This document shows positions 3,526 to 12,015 of a DNA stretch of 64,000 nt, piece after piece. The position numbers and the translations under genes were made by a program. The notes under the pieces are model-generated. The model ran no database searches and was not told where the DNA came from. It saw only the letters and a list, made by a program, of their open reading frames with translations. The DNA is taken from sequence record OR886155.1. One strand, 5' to 3'. The stretch is from Escherichia phage FH3. The first letter of the stretch is position 1. Every line of letters begins with the position of its first letter.

Positions 3526-3783
3526 CTACTTACCCTTGTTGGTAATAATAACATCATGAAGAAGAACAATCTTGCTTTTCGAGCTAAGCTTAAGGACTTG
3601 CTTATTTGTCAGACTGAGGACGACACAACCACCATCAGAAGGCTTGGTCTCTTCAATCTGTGGGGTAAATAGCTGAACAACCATGTAGAAATCTGCTCGT
3701 GTTTCCCTGATTTGGAATACATCTCCAAGTTTGAGATCACCAACACACAAAGACGGTTCATTTACTTCAAGATTAATCTTCAT
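3526..3783 (-). CDS. small early protein, paralog family member 3
   Basis: VGDLKLGDVF core; abuts neighbours. Confidence 0.4.
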   Translation of the reverse strand: MKINLEVNEPSLCVGDLKLGDVFQIRETRADFYMVVQLFTPQIEETKPSDGGCVVLSLTNKQVLKLSSKSKIVLLHDVIITNKGK

Positions 3784-4009
3784 CTTTAGCCTCTATATTG
3801 GTTATGTGGAGATCGCTGCGTACTTGGCAAACTTCATCTCGTTTAAAAGGCATGAGCTTTCCAGTTACCACATCAACACAGTTGACATAGTTATCTGCGT
3901 ATAATGTGTCAGTTCTAATGTAAAGGGATTCTTTACGCTCAAACAGAACCCCCGGCTTCATGTTATTTAAGCGAAGCATTGTACGATCGGATTTAATATT
4001 AACTTTCAT
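3773..4009 (-). CDS. small early protein, paralog family member 4
   Basis: LNNMKPGVLF core; overlaps neighbour by a few nt. Confidence 0.4.
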   Translation of the reverse strand: MKVNIKSDRTMLRLNNMKPGVLFERKESLYIRTDTLYADNYVNCVDVVTGKLMPFKRDEVCQVRSDLHITNIEAKDED

Positions 4010-4011
4010 CT

Positions 4012-4293
4012 TTAATCCACCTTATTGGTAAGTCGAGCATTATCAACTACCTGAACAACAGTATCTTTTCTCAACATTGTTATTCTATCCGAAGTGAGAT
4101 CTACTACTACCCTTTCATCAGACTTCCAACTAGCTGAATAAACGGTTGAGGAATCTAGCTTTACTGTAAGATATAATTTATTTTTAGGTGGCACAGTTTC
4201 AAAAACACTTCCCACCTTCAGATCTTTCAGCTGCTTGACTACAGGGGCTGTATTAATATCATGCTTCATTGTTAATCTCCTGCTGCTTAGCAA
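4012..4293 (-). CDS. small early protein, paralog family member 5
   Basis: LKDLKVGSVF core. Confidence 0.4.
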   Translation of the reverse strand: MLSSRRLTMKHDINTAPVVKQLKDLKVGSVFETVPPKNKLYLTVKLDSSTVYSASWKSDERVVVDLTSDRITMLRKDTVVQVVDNARLTNKVD

Positions 4294-4555
4294 TAGCTAC
4301 TCGCAAGTCTTCATTAGCACGAGCAAGGCGTAATACTTCATTGTTGAGGCTCTGAAGACGCTTGTTTCTATCTTCAACTTGCATAATAAGATCATTAAGT
4401 ATTACTTTAACTTTCTCATTATACATCTCATCCACTCGGACTAGAGATTTATACATTCTTTCCCAGCTTGCTGCTTTGTTTCTGAGAACAATAAATCCTA
4501 TAACGCTGATAATTAAACAGCTTACAAAAAGGAATTTATATACTTCTAAAGTCAT
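4259..4555 (-). CDS. membrane-anchored coiled-coil protein
   Basis: N-terminal hydrophobic segment (FLFVSCLIISVIGFIVL) then heptad-like charged region. Confidence 0.35.
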   Translation of the reverse strand: MTLEVYKFLFVSCLIISVIGFIVLRNKAASWERMYKSLVRVDEMYNEKVKVILNDLIMQVEDRNKRLQSLNNEVLRLARANEDLRVAIAKQQEINNEA

Positions 4556-4755
4556 ATTATTTTACCCTTTATCAGAGATTAAAAGTAATATTATTTAAGT
4601 AAGTTATATTTAGTAAACTTATTTTCTAAGAAATTTTCAAAGGGTCTATATACAGAGCATTACTCATAGTCCCAGAATACTACCATCTTTTTCAATAAAT
4701 TTACTAAGTGGTTGGTTTATAAAGGAATTTAGTTTGTCAAATCTGGCACTAGTGA

Positions 4756-5531: not shown

Positions 5532-5975
5532 TCATTTTACCCTCGCCTCTTTGATGGGGTCAATGTATTTCTCAACGCCCCATTTATGTTTACTATCTGC
5601 GTAGAAAACATCAGGCGCACACTGACTTGTCTTAGGGAATGCTTGCGGGTCTTTCGTGCTACCTTTAAACTTCTGCTTACCACGGGTGCGACCATTACAG
5701 AAGATTTCTAACTTCTTCTCTTCTTCTGTTTTAGCGCCCCCGCTCTGTAACAAAGAACGTTTATGATCGGCTAACAATAACGCATCAGCACGATGAACAC
5801 GATGGCCTACACGCTTTGCCACACTAGAAGGAATATGGGATTCAGCCTCAGCCTTTGCAGCACGACGTTTTAAACTACGCTTACTAACGTGATTAGTTGC
5901 CTTCGGTTTCTCTTTCTCCAGTTCAGAGATAGCAAAACAACGCCCGCCCTTCATGCTGATTTTAGATTTAGCCAC
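5532..5975 (-). CDS. basic hypothetical protein
   Basis: ORF track; K/R-rich, possibly nucleic-acid binding. Confidence 0.35.
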   Translation of the reverse strand: MAKSKISMKGGRCFAISELEKEKPKATNHVSKRSLKRRAAKAEAESHIPSSVAKRVGHRVHRADALLLADHKRSLLQSGGAKTEEEKKLEIFCNGRTRGKQKFKGSTKDPQAFPKTSQCAPDVFYADSKHKWGVEKYIDPIKEARVK

Positions 5976-6250
5976 AATCTTATTCCTTTTAGTGATAAAT
6001 TATATCGGGCAAGCCCATCAAGGTGACAGGCTTGAACAAATAACTTAATCGAGTAAACTAAATGACTTCCAACTGCGTAGCAGGATTGTACCATCATCCA
6101 TAGCCACGCATAACTTTAACAGCTTCTTGTTAGCACTACTCACCGTTGTAATTCGTCCGGTTGTACATTTACCTTTATTGCTATAAAGATAAACCACACG
6201 ACGGCCTAACAAACGAGATGGCGCTTCCTTAAATTCTGAAATGTTAGTGA

Positions 6251-6475
6251 TCATGATGCTTGATACCTTTGAATGTGTTCAATACGGGTTGATTGAGCAA
6301 ATGACGCTTTAACAGCCATTTTCCTAACTTCTTCTTTACGCTGGTTAGTGTGTACAGTATCCCAATGTTTGTTATCACGTTGGCGCTGTAATATCTTACT
6401 ACATTTGCGATGGTTTCCCGTGCTGCGATGTTTCTCACAAATAGGACACTTGCCAAAATTACTACTGAATATCAT
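6251..6475 (-). CDS. small basic Cys-containing protein
   Basis: ORF track; CPICEKH...HRKC cluster; the overlapping alternative frame 6244-6456 is judged less likely. Confidence 0.3.
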   Translation of the reverse strand: MIFSSNFGKCPICEKHRSTGNHRKCSKILQRQRDNKHWDTVHTNQRKEEVRKMAVKASFAQSTRIEHIQRYQAS

Positions 6476-6699
6476 TTTCTCAATCCCAGCTTTCTTAAGA
6501 TACGGCCTAACGTTGTTTCTTGCGTGATAATATAACTGATCGCTTCACGTTCCAGCGTTTCAATCTTCATTGGCGACGGATACCATTCACCGGTAATAAC
6601 ACATTTACATTCAACGCCATATTTTTTAGATAGGCGGTAATGTTGACCGTTGACAAGATTCCGATAAATCGTGGTATGCGTAATTAACATGATCATCAC
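6472..6699 (-). CDS. hypothetical small protein
   Basis: ORF track; abuts neighbours. Confidence 0.3.
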   Translation of the reverse strand: MMIMLITHTTIYRNLVNGQHYRLSKKYGVECKCVITGEWYPSPMKIETLEREAISYIITQETTLGRILRKLGLRK

Positions 6700-6801
6700 C
6701 TTTGATTAGATTCTTTGATTAATGCACTGAATCAATGCACTGATAAAAGAAAAGGCGCTACCCGTTAAGATAGCGCCTTATGTTTATTCGAATTGTCCTA
6801 C

Positions 6802-7710
6802 TTATGCCGCTTGGCGTGCTGCCATAATCTCAGCTGCCTTGCGCAATACTTCTTCCTCTTCTGCTTTCGCCGCTTGTTCGGTACGGGTAGCAACCGTTGA
6901 AGAGATACGACCTCGCAGACTTTCTAACTTCTCCTGCATAGCTGCAACAGTCTTTTCCATTTCATCAGCGTATGAATCGAGTGATTCTAATTCCTTGCTT
7001 GATGCGTTCATCAGATAATCATCTGAGATCGCTACCGTCGAGGCCGTTACTTTCTTGATGAGTGAATCAAAGGACTTTTTAACTTTGCCGACTTCTTCAC
7101 TCAAAGCAATGGTGTTATCACTGGTAGCGCCGTTGCGCTCATCAGCCAGTAATTTGGCTTCAATACGGATTGCATTCAAGCGTTCAACTAAAGCGTAAAT
7201 ATCCTGATTAAAATCTTCCTTGTTTTTCGCCGGAATTTGCAGGTGTGCCGCCACGTTGTCGTTGCAACCTTTGTAGAAGTTAGGATTATCCACTTCAATT
7301 GCACGACCTAAAGCAAAGTTTTCGAAAGCATTTGACCAGCGAGCACGATTTTGTTCCATTTTGGCCTTAATTTGCGCTTCTTTCGCGTCTTCTTTAGCTT
7401 TCGCCTCACCTTCCAGATTAATCCACTTTTTACGACCATTTGCCGCATCGGTGTTAAACTTGATAGGAGTTAAGAAAGTAATTGCAGTGGCAATCACATC
7501 CATATCACGAAAACGTTCGGTTAACAGAAAATCAACCGCCGACTGCAATACATCTAACTTCTTGCCGTTACTGCGGAAGTGCTGCAAGTGCCCTAACAGA
7601 AAATTAGAAACATCTTGTTTGATCGCCGCGTTATTGCTACGAATGTTGTTAGCCAGTGCGTTAAAACCAGATTCGTTAACCAGATTAAAGATCTTAGCCA
7701 TGATATTCAC
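6802..7710 (-). CDS. hypothetical early protein (coiled-coil C-terminus)
   Basis: 302-aa ORF, first gene downstream (minus sense) of the 1.8 kb non-coding region. Confidence 0.4.
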   Translation of the reverse strand: MNIMAKIFNLVNESGFNALANNIRSNNAAIKQDVSNFLLGHLQHFRSNGKKLDVLQSAVDFLLTERFRDMDVIATAITFLTPIKFNTDAANGRKKWINLEGEAKAKEDAKEAQIKAKMEQNRARWSNAFENFALGRAIEVDNPNFYKGCNDNVAAHLQIPAKNKEDFNQDIYALVERLNAIRIEAKLLADERNGATSDNTIALSEEVGKVKKSFDSLIKKVTASTVAISDDYLMNASSKELESLDSYADEMEKTVAAMQEKLESLRGRISSTVATRTEQAAKAEEEEVLRKAAEIMAARQAA

Positions 7711-9484
7711 CTTTCAATTGTAAGGGCGCTATTGCCCCGCTCTCTATGAGCTTGTTTAAGTCACTATTAACTTATCTCTAACCACTCACTTTTTAAGTAG
7801 TTACAGGTAAGTGAGGCGGTCTTATCAGGAGTTAACCTTGCCGCCTCCTTATCCGTGATGTTTCATCTGGTATCTTTAATTAGTCGCTATAAACGAAGCC
7901 GACCTGATAGCGATGATCAATCATCACAATAAGGCTATGCGTCCGACTCTATTTAATTACATTGCTGTAACCGTCGGCAATATCGTTTACTTTGTTTTCG
8001 CTCCCGCTTATCCTTTGTGCCAACTCCTGATCGCTAACCATCGCCCACTACGGGAGGCTATTGCGAAAAGGTCATTGACCGCCTAATATTCCGGCGTTTT
8101 ATATCTTTCAGCAGGTTTACTACATAAACCGACTATGTACTTTCGTCATAAGACGAATATCAAGCCGTTCACATCGTAAACGTTCGCATTAAACCTTATT
8201 GTTAAATAGCAATTTGCCACTTTTTAACCACTCCCCGCCGCCCTCAATTGGGCGTTAATTCTTCGGACTTGCCTACCCTGATTAACTTCTTTCACTGTAG
8301 CACCTTGTTAGCGATGACCGCCGCTACCCTTAACCGTGGGCGATTAGCTTAAGCCGTTGCGTGTACTCAATGAATCCGTTTATCAGTGGTGACTTTTCCA
8401 GTAAGGGAATGTAAGACTGTTTACCCTGATATTTTAGGGAGTCTTACACCGTTTTATCTGGTATGCTTTCCGATGGTTATTATCATCAAGCATATTCAAC
8501 CGATATATGGGAATGTTTAAATTATTAAAGAGCGGTAAATCTATCAGTGTGCTTTCTCACACTATGCAACTGTTAGCCGTTGTTACGCTTTTCACTGAAG
8601 CGATGATTTGCTTAGTGAGTGCTCATTATGAATCATGTTGTTTTCGCTGTCAACCGCTTTTTAATCTTTTTTCGTCGTTCCCGCTATTGGGAGGATATAT
8701 CAATCAGCTTTATTTGATTGAAGATTAAGCGGTGATGCTTAACTTATGATTCATATTGTTAAAGAGCGTTAGCCTTTTAGAGTGTCTGCTAATCACTGTC
8801 ACATTTAAGGCTTACTTATTCATTAACGGGCCGCCTACACCCGAACTACTCGCTGCACTATGTGCCACTTTTCCCGCGATACGTTGATTTGGGAACTTGT
8901 TAGCGGTGTATCTGCTAACTTGTGGTTAGTATGGACTACTTTAACCACGTTTGCAACTCTTTTTATCATCTTCTTTTAATTCCTTTCCCTTATCTCGCGT
9001 GAATCTATGCGAAAGGGCAAGATGATAAGTTTTTAAAGAGCGGGATTTTTTAAGTCATCGCTGACTATGCTCACTATATATCAGGCTGTTTTCGGTGTCA
9101 ATACTCTTTTTGAGAATATTTTCACTTTCTAACCTGATTTTTAAAGAGCGGGGCAATTTCTTGCCTTGTATGTTTTACATCGTACCCGATGAAATGAAGT
9201 ATACGCTAATCAGATGAGGTTGCAATAGGGTAAAGCAAATTATTTTAAACTTTTTCACTATAGGAAGGTAAAAGAGCAGGCGCACGCGATACATCATAGA
9301 AAACGGCTTGTAAAGCGATATTTAGCGGCCTAAAACGCATCACAACGAGCTAAAAGGGAGTAAGGCATACACTCACCTCATAAAAGAGAAAAGCCTCACT
9401 AGGAGGCTTACAGGAAGGATTAGAGAATCAGATAGATTATGACCATAGGCATGACTACGGCACAATACAGAAGAAAGATTAAGC
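7711..9484. repeat. 1.8 kb ORF-free region with reiterated motifs
   Basis: TTAAAGAGCG at 8525, 8759, 9033 and 9141; two hairpin + CCGT..TGTTT(C/T)ATCTGGTAT modules near 7820-7885 and 8400-8478; CACTATAGG at 9256-9264. Confidence 0.45.
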
Positions 9485-9850
9485 CTATGGATTTACACAT
9501 TGACCGTTACCGGATGCCATTTCATTCATAGACTCATCAAAGAGCGTCAACGATGAGCGCATCAAGTGATCGACCGTAATTTGCTTACCAGTGGTTTCAT
9601 TTACCAGTTGAATAGTTTTATCATATGATTGTACATGATCGAAATCATTTACATGTAAAATAATAACTTTAGGTGACTTTTTACCAGTGTCATAGTTTTC
9701 TACAATATAGGTGCACTGTAAACCGTCAACCGTAGCAGGGGAGAACGTTGCAGCCTTAACGCTACCCATAGCTGACAGCAGGACACCTAACAGGAGAACG
9801 ACAAGGAAGAAGCCTACAATCGTTTTAACGACGAATTTAATAAACCACAT
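9485..9850 (-). CDS. membrane-anchored or secreted protein
   Basis: N-terminal hydrophobic stretch FVVKTIVGFFLVVLLLGVLLSAMG. Confidence 0.4.
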   Translation of the reverse strand: MWFIKFVVKTIVGFFLVVLLLGVLLSAMGSVKAATFSPATVDGLQCTYIVENYDTGKKSPKVIILHVNDFDHVQSYDKTIQLVNETTGKQITVDHLMRSSLTLFDESMNEMASGNGQCVNP

Positions 9851-10038
9851 AGCAATTAACCTTTAATATTGAGATTAAGCAAATCGAGAGCGGCAACAAT
9901 CAGTAAATAGTTTAAAGAAATGAAGCCCACGACAAACAAAAACAAAAACAGCACAACAGACCTTAAAGAACGTAAGAATAAAGCATGTCAGCGACGAATA
10001 ACGCCACTGTAACAACGAACAAGCAACGCCAAAAATAA

Positions 10039-10311
10039 TCATTCTTCTTCATTGCTACCCTCGCCAAAAAATGCTACGCTGATTTGTTCCACTTCTTCCA
10101 GCGACAGAAGAATCCCACGTTGGGCTAGATACTTCCCAACAGTTAGATAATCTTGCACCAAGCAGACAATAGGAAAGCGTATGTTTTGTATCTCACCTTT
10201 AGAAAGAAAAGACAAATAACCAACGTCGGTTGACTCATCAAAGGACAATGTAACGCCACCGTAATTATGCGTGTCAATTAATGCAATAGTTTCATTTCCC
10301 ATCAGTATCAC
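10039..10311 (-). CDS. small protein, paralog trio member C
   Basis: THNYGG motif shared with ORF 10318-10476. Confidence 0.35.
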   Translation of the reverse strand: MILMGNETIALIDTHNYGGVTLSFDESTDVGYLSFLSKGEIQNIRFPIVCLVQDYLTVGKYLAQRGILLSLEEVEQISVAFFGEGSNEEE

Positions 10312-10317
10312 CCTTAA

Positions 10318-10476
10318 TTAGCCCATGATTGAGCAGGTTAGCCAGCGACAAGCCACCGTCTTAATATTATCGCCGACAATAAACAAGATTAGACACTTGT
10401 CAGAGTCATCAGTATATGAGAAATCAATCCCACCATAATTGTGAGTCGGAATAGTAAAGCTATGCTCTTTAGTCAT
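10318..10476 (-). pseudogene. small ORF, paralog trio member B, possibly frameshifted
   Basis: My translation MTKEHSFTIPTHNYGGIDFSY... (52 aa); the conserved C-terminal GGLSLANLL motif is encoded out of frame. Confidence 0.3.
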
Positions 10477-10720
10477 GTATCAATCTTTCACTTAACAGGT
10501 TAGCCAGTGACAAATCACCTTTGATATAGATGTCACGAAAATCAGCACGGGTAATTTCAAGGCCAGCAAATTTCAACCATTTTTTAGCTGACTGAAAATC
10601 CATTTTGCAAAAAGTGATAATAGGCACGATAAGCTGACCATCAAGCGTATTAAACATGATAGCAGTATCGCCAACAAAACAAGAAAAGTCGTTAGATAAT
10701 TCAACTTCTTTAATAGCCAT
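10469..10720 (-). CDS. small protein, paralog trio member A
   Basis: C-terminus GDLSLANLLSERLIHD; about 30 nt of its 3' end recurs at 10326-10355. Confidence 0.35.
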   Translation of the reverse strand: MAIKEVELSNDFSCFVGDTAIMFNTLDGQLIVPIITFCKMDFQSAKKWLKFAGLEITRADFRDIYIKGDLSLANLLSERLIHD

Positions 10721-10756
10721 TATTTATACTCCCAAAAGATTGGCAAATTAATTTAT

Positions 10757-11248
10757 TCACTTACTAGCCTTAATGCAGTTGGCTAAATTAACGTGAACAG
10801 TATAAACAGCGTTGTCAGCGTTATTGTAAACAGTTGTGGCGATCATCGACTCATTAACCGGACCATAACTCACAAGATTAGTAACGGCTTTAACGTCTTC
10901 ATAACGTTGTACAGTGCCAAATGTCACCATATCCATATCGTTATCGGTACGCTTAAGCACCAAATCACTGTTAGGCTGATTATCTAGCGTTTTAGATTGA
11001 AAGAGAACGCCATCATTAGTAACGTTGCTAAATTTCATCTTTAACACGATGGAAGTGCCATCACTATCAGCACCGTTACAAATCATCCAACCCTTATTGA
11101 TGGAACTAGAGAAGACACTAGCCGCATCAGTTGCAGGAGTAGGACTAGCGATAGCCTTATCAGAAAGAGATGTGACCAGTGCACTAACACCAATCGCTGC
11201 AACTAGTGCATAACTTGCCAGATTAACTACCTGCATTGCTTTAGCCAT
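10757..11248 (-). CDS. secreted protein with signal peptide
   Basis: N-terminus MQVVNLASYALVAAIGVSALVTSLS... typical cleavable signal peptide. Confidence 0.4.
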   Translation of the reverse strand: MAKAMQVVNLASYALVAAIGVSALVTSLSDKAIASPTPATDAASVFSSSINKGWMICNGADSDGTSIVLKMKFSNVTNDGVLFQSKTLDNQPNSDLVLKRTDNDMDMVTFGTVQRYEDVKAVTNLVSYGPVNESMIATTVYNNADNAVYTVHVNLANCIKASK

Positions 11249-12015
11249 TTCGTTACTCCTTAGATAGATTCAGTCAACTGTCATCAACTATATATTAAAG
11301 GAAAAGACTGTCAACCATCTATTTTCTAACTTTCTTGCATCCTACTGAAAACTAAAGGAATTTAATTTACTAAACTTTCCATACTCAGAGAATCAGCTTA
11401 CTTCTTATTGTTACTTTATAACACTACGGGTAACAGACCAACAGACCAGGACAAACGGGGATACAACAACCGCAGGACAGACCACGGGGAAACACAGCCA
11501 GATAGTGCGGTAGTAATATACCACTTAAATAATTGTATAACTCAAACATCAAAGACGTTCGCTACGCTCACAAAGGCACGCTGAAAAAGAAAGTAATAAA
11601 AGAAACAATTAAAAGAAATACAATCATCCACTTAATTAATACATACATCATTATTGCACTCATAATCATTACTATTGAAACTATTTACACTCAAACTATG
11701 GGGGATGGAACGGTAACAATACGGTATTATTAGACCTGTTATGATTGTGCCTGTACAGTGCTAGCCTTTCTCTCACTCTTTAAAGGGGTACTAAATAAAC
11801 GGGTAGGTAATGTATTGGGTAGTATACACGGGGGAATAATTACGGGGAGTAGGCACGGGGAAAGGTGGAACATGTAAAGGGAAGGTAAAGGCATTGCCAA
11901 TAACCCTTTTTTAAATGAGGACTCCCCCTTTTTAGGAAACGCGCGGGAAGCGGCTAGCCCCACTCGGTCAAATCAGAATTTTAAACTCTTATATATAAGC
12001 TTAAGAGAGGACTTA
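11249..12015. promoter_or_regulatory. divergent intergenic control region
   Basis: Lies between the minus-strand early block and plus-strand genes; ACGGGG-type motifs clustered at 11426-11490 and 11798-11862; AT-rich tract 11580-11740. Confidence 0.35.

Follow-up and report, generated by a model that had tools for sequence, protein, structure and literature searches.

A chimeric reading frame in the early operon of Escherichia phage FH3, a probable recombination scar between related Kuravirus phages

The early operon and its small genes

The window analysed here, a 64,000-nt (64-kb) stretch of Escherichia phage FH3 (OR886155.1), comes from a Kuravirus (phiEco32-like, Gordonclarkvirinae) phage of E. 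coli, and a 1.9-kb query returned 78 phage records, all of the Escherichia/Shigella Kuravirus type except two titled only 'phage', with phages 1-6af and 1-6bf as the top matches at 97-98%. A leftward operon in this window encodes, in order, a 163-aa protein, A (83 aa), B (52 aa), C (87 aa) and a 121-aa protein. The operon is headed by a near-consensus sigma-70-type promoter-like site (11287..11314, minus strand; TTGACA-16-TATAGT, 11/12) and is closed by an intrinsic-terminator-like hairpin (9391..9409, minus strand; AAGCCTC-CTAGT-GAGGCTT followed by a T-rich run). Gene order and the positions of promoter and terminator are like those of CDS125-CDS121 in phiEco32/SU10, with A equivalent to CDS124, C to CDS122 and the 121-aa gene to CDS121, and with a variable slot between A and C; in SU10 the homologous genes were described as an early operon with one sigma-70 promoter ahead of CDS125 and a terminator past CDS121 (PMC4281155). 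A promoter-like site (10403..10376) and a terminator-like site (10445..10429) inside B were both at background level and were not used.

The first gene (10757..11248, minus strand) encodes the 163-aa protein, a short form of SU10 CDS125 that is identical to 1-6af at 492/492 nt. The short form is also found in 1-6af and ES17, and in SU10, Paul and Ptacy1479 the gene at this place is annotated in an 873-nt (290-aa) form. The last gene (9485..9850, minus strand), a homologue of SU10 CDS121, is likewise identical to 1-6af (366/366 nt), and several GenBank/RefSeq records label it 'terminase'; both its 121-aa product and the 163-aa protein have hydrophobic, signal-like N-termini. Gene A (10469..10720, minus strand), the resident allele and a homologue of SU10 CDS124, ends in ...GDLSLANLLSERLIHD and is identical to its 1-6af counterpart over 252/252 nt. 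Gene C (10039..10302, minus strand), an intact homologue of SU10 CDS122, can be read as 90 aa from a GTG at 10311 or as 87 aa from the ATG at 10302, the start used by its homologues.

An earlier note on this DNA had listed A (10720..10469), B (10476..10318) and C (10311..10039) as three ORFs with common sequence and an apparently frameshifted middle copy. All three are present on the minus strand at these coordinates, and the similarity holds for the middle ORF against each of its neighbours; it does not extend to A and C, which give no BLASTP match to each other and belong to different PHROG families. B and C have the hexapeptide THNYGG in common and align by BLASTP with 13/41 identities (E=7e-7), while the C-terminal motif of the A type lies in another frame of B, where the -1 frame at the 3' end reads DGGLSLANLLNHGLIKGDTDGK up to a stop. 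The corresponding 24-nt pattern, GGTGNNTTGTCNCTGGCTAACCTG, has exactly two sites in the 64-kb window (10334-10357 and 10496-10519, both on the minus strand), and shuffled sequences are expected to hold none. The similarities of the middle ORF to its neighbours are thus above chance and the frame difference is real. The exact THNYGG match is in part peculiar to the window: codon 16 of ORF B (10428-10430) has changed from GAG to GGG in this copy alone, and the resulting E16G substitution creates the exact match to C. The five other copies that bear the junction described below, and all alleles seen of the B' gene found in relatives, have E or D at residue 16, so that the motif there reads NYGE or NYGD.

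Profile comparisons assign the three ORFs differently. C matches positions 1-86 of phrog_16976 (86 positions; E=2e-56) and the intact B' protein of 1-6af matches positions 2-81 (E=6e-19), whereas ORF B reaches positions 2-42 alone (E=8.6e-4), and this partial match marks ORF B as a fragment rather than a member of the family to which C belongs. A matches positions 1-83 of phrog_14176 (87 positions; E=4e-42), a family in which ORF B has no membership either, as what it retains of an A-type gene is just the final ~20 codons, and these in the -1 frame. Searches of Pfam with A, B, C, B' and X (an additional gene carried in this slot by some relatives) gave nothing above threshold. Several GenBank/RefSeq records label the 83-88-aa homologues of A (in ES17, phiEco32, ECBP2 and others) 'polymerase' or 'DNA polymerase B region'; for A this name lacks Pfam support, and the labels look like mis-annotations propagated from the name of phrog_14176.

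The joint within ORF B and the parental arrangements in relatives

ORF B (10318..10476, minus strand; MTKEHSF...TVACRWLTCSIMG, 52 aa) is a chimera of B' codons 1-41 and 11 out-of-frame codons from the 3' end of an A'-type gene. Its start overlaps the stop codon of A by 8 nt (ATGACTAA), as in 1-6af. The head (10361..10476, minus strand) is the 5' part of the resident B'-type allele and agrees with the intact 84-aa B' gene of 1-6af at 115/116 nt; with most of the adjoining microhomology included, the agreement is 121/122 nt (99.2%), compared with 58.6% for the window's own C. The tail, a segment of ~60-65 nt (10292..10353, minus strand) that encodes GLSLANLLNHGLIKGDTDGK and a stop in frame -1 relative to B, is the 3' end of a foreign A'-type gene and is 91% (91.2%) identical to A' of SU10, 84% to A' of ES17 and 66.7% to the window's own A. 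The 7-nt GACGGTG (10354..10360, minus strand) is the only sequence at which matches to the two parental types overlap, and it stands in the context AAGACGGTGAGC in B' alleles and TTGACGGTGGCT or TTGACGGTGATT in A' alleles; since both parental types contain it, the crossover can be placed within 10354-10360. The junction reads ATTAAGACGGTG joined to GCTTGTCG (in longer form, ...AATATTAAGACGGTG joined to GCTTGTCGCTGG...), and the sequence spanning it is ATTAAGACGGTGGCTTGTCG. It links B' codons 39-41 to A' codons ~65-67, and because these positions are not equivalent the reading frame is lost, so that the change of frame coincides with the switch of parental type and not with an indel.

Comparison with relatives, which the earlier note had proposed as a check, recovered both parental arrangements, A followed by B' in 1-6af and A' followed by C in ES17. 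In 1-6af and Paul the slot holds A and then the intact 84-aa B', MTKEHSFTIPTHNYGEIDFSYTDDSDKCLILFIVGDNIKTVSFPAVALIMD...; in ES17-like phages it holds A' and C, and in ES17 itself the stop codon of A' (88 aa, ending GDLSLANLLNHGLIGDDTNGK) and the start of C overlap, as in the window. IMEP8 has A' and then B', and in SU10 and Ptacy1479 gene X separates the A-type gene from C or B'. The window differs from SU10 in that it has a chimeric remnant where SU10 has the SU10-specific CDS123 and ES17 has nothing. Intact B' genes of 84-88 aa occur in 1-6af, Paul, IMEP8 and Ptacy1479, and their first 41 codons correspond to ORF B. B' and C align collinearly from end to end (44% amino acid identity, E=8e-23) and match the same PHROG, which makes them alternative alleles of one slot rather than neighbours; no matching GenBank phage record carries B' and C together or two A-type genes.

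The imported sequence extends beyond the A' tail to the complete C gene, an imported allele, and this patch (10043..10353, minus strand) is the sole stretch within 8750-11250 that diverges from 1-6af. In the minus-strand alignment of the window with 1-6af, 10480-10354 has 1 mismatch in 127 nt, 10353-10043 has no meaningful identity, and identity is 100% from 10042 downstream; across 15 kb the two genomes show 0-1 mismatch per 250 nt, save for a few discrete divergent patches of which this is one. ShigP1, MN03, DE5 and SkaterBoy carry the patch as one collinear A'-C piece at 91-92%, and SU10-like phages match it at 93% with X inserted. An exact donor of the patch was not found among database phages, where the best matches stand at 91-94%. 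A wastewater contig whose C protein is 99% identical (P0001) was considered as the donor and set aside, as its upstream context is of the SU10 type and its DNA is ~91% identical overall; the final ~100 nt of its C gene are identical to the window. In wastewater contig L008 (ENA ERZ964820), C is ~92% identical over the first ~180 nt (33-212) and 100% identical over the next ~100 nt (213-314), which comprise the rest of C and the start of the spacer, a pattern suggesting that recombination breakpoints also fall within C.

An abrupt switch of parental type, the survival of both parental arrangements in other phages and a microhomology confined to the crossover are what an illegitimate recombination joint displays, and we consider it very probable that ORF B is a recombination scar derived from two related Kuravirus phages, and neither a paralog nor a frameshifted gene. 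The ancestor would have carried a 1-6af-type cassette (A and intact 84-aa B') and met a co-infecting Kuravirus with A'-C or A'-X-C. An illegitimate upstream crossover would have used GACGGTG to attach the first 41 codons of B' to A' near codon 66, and a downstream crossover, in homologous sequence at or past the C stop codon, would have completed the exchange to give A, B'(1-41) running out of frame into the A' tail, and an intact C. The net effect would be a C allele in place of the B' allele, with a 5' stump of B' remaining. Thereafter the scar would have been passed on by descent and, through ordinary homologous recombination, have travelled with the neighbouring A allele from one Kuravirus lineage to another. 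The description of the middle ORF as a degenerate, out-of-frame composite with one piece homologous to each neighbour stands; neither piece was copied from a gene of the window itself.

Recurrence of the joint and the alternatives to recombination

An identical 32-nt junction is present in five assemblies (Logan SRR29378875, SRR31774761, ERR7015313 and ERR7015339, and ENA ERZ28649626) from different runs and studies, which were reached through the A-family relatives P0031 and P0032 in a large protein collection. Relative to the window they are identical at 250-251/252 nt of A, 114-115/116 nt of the B head and 48-49/49 nt of the A' tail, and the A+B block (10305-10720) is 99-100% identical across these contigs (L009-L013); the flanking genes, gp163 and gp121, are just 84-96% identical to the window. 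All six copies keep ORF B intact and end it at the same stop, with at most 2 substitutions in 159 nt, and the same 52-aa ORF appears in the three assemblies for which ORFs were listed or called. Downstream content varies: three of the contigs (L011-L013) match the window, X precedes C in L009, and L010 carries a further deletion, and from this variation it follows that the joint is older than the later reshuffling. Together, these sequences point to a joint that arose once, is heritable and was carried with the adjacent A allele into different backgrounds. The block formed by A and the B remnant is being exchanged among diverged Kuravirus lineages. The junction was absent from IMG/VR, JGI metagenomes and the 60 GenBank phage records with a match, so the lineage is not a common one, and exact-protein look-ups returned no record of the 52-aa ORF in its G16 or E16 form, nor of the window's A. 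The reciprocal joint, TTGACGGTGAGCTTTCC, had one match in IMG/VR (L014), which lies inside an unrelated 363-aa gene and is attributable to chance.

The recurrence bears directly on the suspicion of an assembly error, raised by the earlier note. Mixed Kuravirus populations are common in sewage isolates and the joint is missing from the GenBank phages, IMG/VR and JGI metagenomes, as might be expected of an assembly chimera or a sequencing error in this genome; its identical occurrence in five independent assemblies shows that it is neither, and the 7 nt common to both sides of the joint are far fewer than assembler k-mer sizes, which together make this explanation highly improbable. The reading first proposed, in which the window's own genes were recently duplicated in tandem and the middle copy then suffered a frameshift, would account for the motifs that ORF B has in common with both neighbours and for the discontinuity of frame. 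The pieces of ORF B are nearer to genes of other genomes (99% and 91%) than to the window's own C and A (59% and 67%), however, and the frame breaks at a 7-nt recombination joint rather than at an indel in a once-continuous gene. Moreover, ORF B has nothing of the middle ~27 codons of an A-type gene or of the distal half found in C-type genes, and a product with the frame restored, missing residues 1-66 of A as well as the helical half of B'/C, would be a normal member of neither family. On these grounds we see hardly any room for a duplication.

The proposal of a frameshift-regulated variant fares no better. Programmed -1 frameshift sites are known in phages, for example in the tail assembly chaperone G/GT, and ORF B is like G/GT in that two overlapping frames are each homologous to known proteins, the second frame being open over the last 20 codons and encoding the conserved C-terminus of the A family, so that a regulated B'-A' fusion protein could be imagined. 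Unlike G/GT, the window has no slippery heptamer: direct reading of B codons 38-52 in the zero frame (AAG ACG GTG GCT TGT CGC TGG CTA ACC TGC TCA ATC ATG GGC TAA) finds neither a homopolymer run nor an X XXY YYZ heptamer, and TAA stops close the -1 frame directly 5' of GAC GGT. Relatives outside the junction-bearing lineage have A, B' and C as single-frame genes, so that the two-frame layout is not conserved, and the A' tail is conserved because it was recently imported and not because it is selected in its present context. We therefore regard programmed frameshifting as exceedingly improbable. Another route to the same joint, with the same microhomology, would have been the formation of a tandem A-B'-A'-C by recombination at gene boundaries and the subsequent deletion of ~335 nt between two copies of GACGGTG. 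A microhomology-mediated deletion has apparently occurred in this operon, in L010, between two 11-nt TTTGATGAGTC repeats, yet neither two A-type genes nor an intact B' together with C appears in any matching phage record or fetched contig, and this route costs one event more than a single unequal crossover; we judge it unlikely.

Fate of the remnant and its genomic setting

Because the stump keeps the B start that overlaps the stop codon of A, ORF B is probably still translated, to a 52-aa peptide of 41 B' residues and an 11-residue nonsense tail. The ORF stops 15 nt before the C ATG (10302), and the imported A' tail carries a Shine-Dalgarno-like AAGGGTGA and the start context of C, by which it would supply the ribosome-binding context, so that expression of C is probably preserved. 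In terms of predicted structure, ORF B would keep only the four-stranded sheet half of the B'/C fold. Most likely the scar is non-functional; with this E16G is consistent, although as a single observation it is weak evidence for relaxed constraint. We also weighed whether the 52-aa chimera might be a new gene with a function, reduced to the sheet of the B'/C fold and kept by selection, a reading compatible with an origin by recombination. In all six copies the ORF is intact and translationally coupled to A, the predicted strands 1-4 of the fold are kept, and the A+B block is conserved at 99-100% against flanks of 84-96%, which could mean that the block, or B, is selected. A recent origin and hitch-hiking with A explain the low divergence equally well, however, the tail is another gene read out of frame, and the window copy is substituted at an otherwise invariant acidic position, all of which leaves a functional gene doubtful. 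We place a similarly low likelihood on a broader conjecture, in which a selected newborn 52-aa gene would be spreading with the A allele and modifying host takeover or counter-defence, with A, X and B'/C as fast-shuffling effectors of the same fold.

Structure prediction with AF2 placed four strands (residues 4-44) and three helices (45-79) in C (pLDDT 85.3), and four strands followed by four helices in A (pLDDT 86.7). The two models, which are predicted structures only, thus have the same order of elements, strands 1-4 and then helices. The absence of a BLASTP match between A and C is accompanied by an hhalign probability of 4.7% (profiles of 31 and 30 sequences; pairwise E=0.0085 over 34 columns). 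The A model matches BFVD entry A0A6J4EFN5 (TM 0.64/0.60, probability 0.99), which the C model identifies as a member of the B'/C family (41% identity, TM 0.81), and also the 73-aa entry UPI001E75240B (TM 0.62/0.69), which may be the X gene; a PDB fold search with the C model returned no match with E below 0.2. On these models, A and C may be ancient paralogs and the operon may encode a set of small early proteins of the same fold. Any common origin of A and C is separate from the motifs that drew attention to the locus, which stem from the chimeric joint.

In the Hendrix/Hatfull model of tailed-phage mosaicism, 'novel joints' arise by illegitimate or homeologous recombination. The FH3 joint is like these in its abrupt switch between parents, the few identical nucleotides at the joint, the small gene cassette involved and the presence of both parental configurations in relatives. 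Surviving joints usually lie at gene boundaries, and the FH3 joint is unlike them in that it falls within coding sequence and leaves a visible out-of-frame stump, and in that the scar itself has been handed on to several diverged lineages. Martinsohn et al. 2008 (PMC2327257) discuss illegitimate against homeologous recombination as the origin of mosaicism in phages. Events of this type are well known, and the FH3 joint adds a new instance; the scar does not overturn current understanding and is an ordinary case of how phage genomes become mosaic. Its value is as a base-resolved example of an allelic cassette swap between lytic phages, one for which both parental states and subsequent descendants remain available for sampling. 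The appropriate annotation of the 52-aa ORF is 'gene remnant'. Within the early operon of Kuravirus, the A/(X)/B'-C slot is a recombination hot spot with deeply diverged alleles, and slots of this kind are the usual places in which to seek host-takeover or anti-defence genes.

Other stretches of the window (3750-4750, 5750-8750 and 11500-12000, the last with indels) also diverge from 1-6af in patches and indicate further mosaic exchanges. In L010 (ENA ERZ28649626 scaffold_52, a 77-kb metagenomic Kuravirus contig), positions 1910-2035 encode a fusion in which residues 1-24 of C run into the final 17 of the 121-aa protein, the product of a ~700-nt deletion between the 11-nt direct repeats TTTGATGAGTC, which encode 'FDES' in both genes. 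In the window this 11-mer occurs exactly twice (10232-10242 and 9531-9541; 0.06 expected), and unless the contig reflects an assembly collapse, its fusion is a second case of rearrangement through microhomology within this operon.
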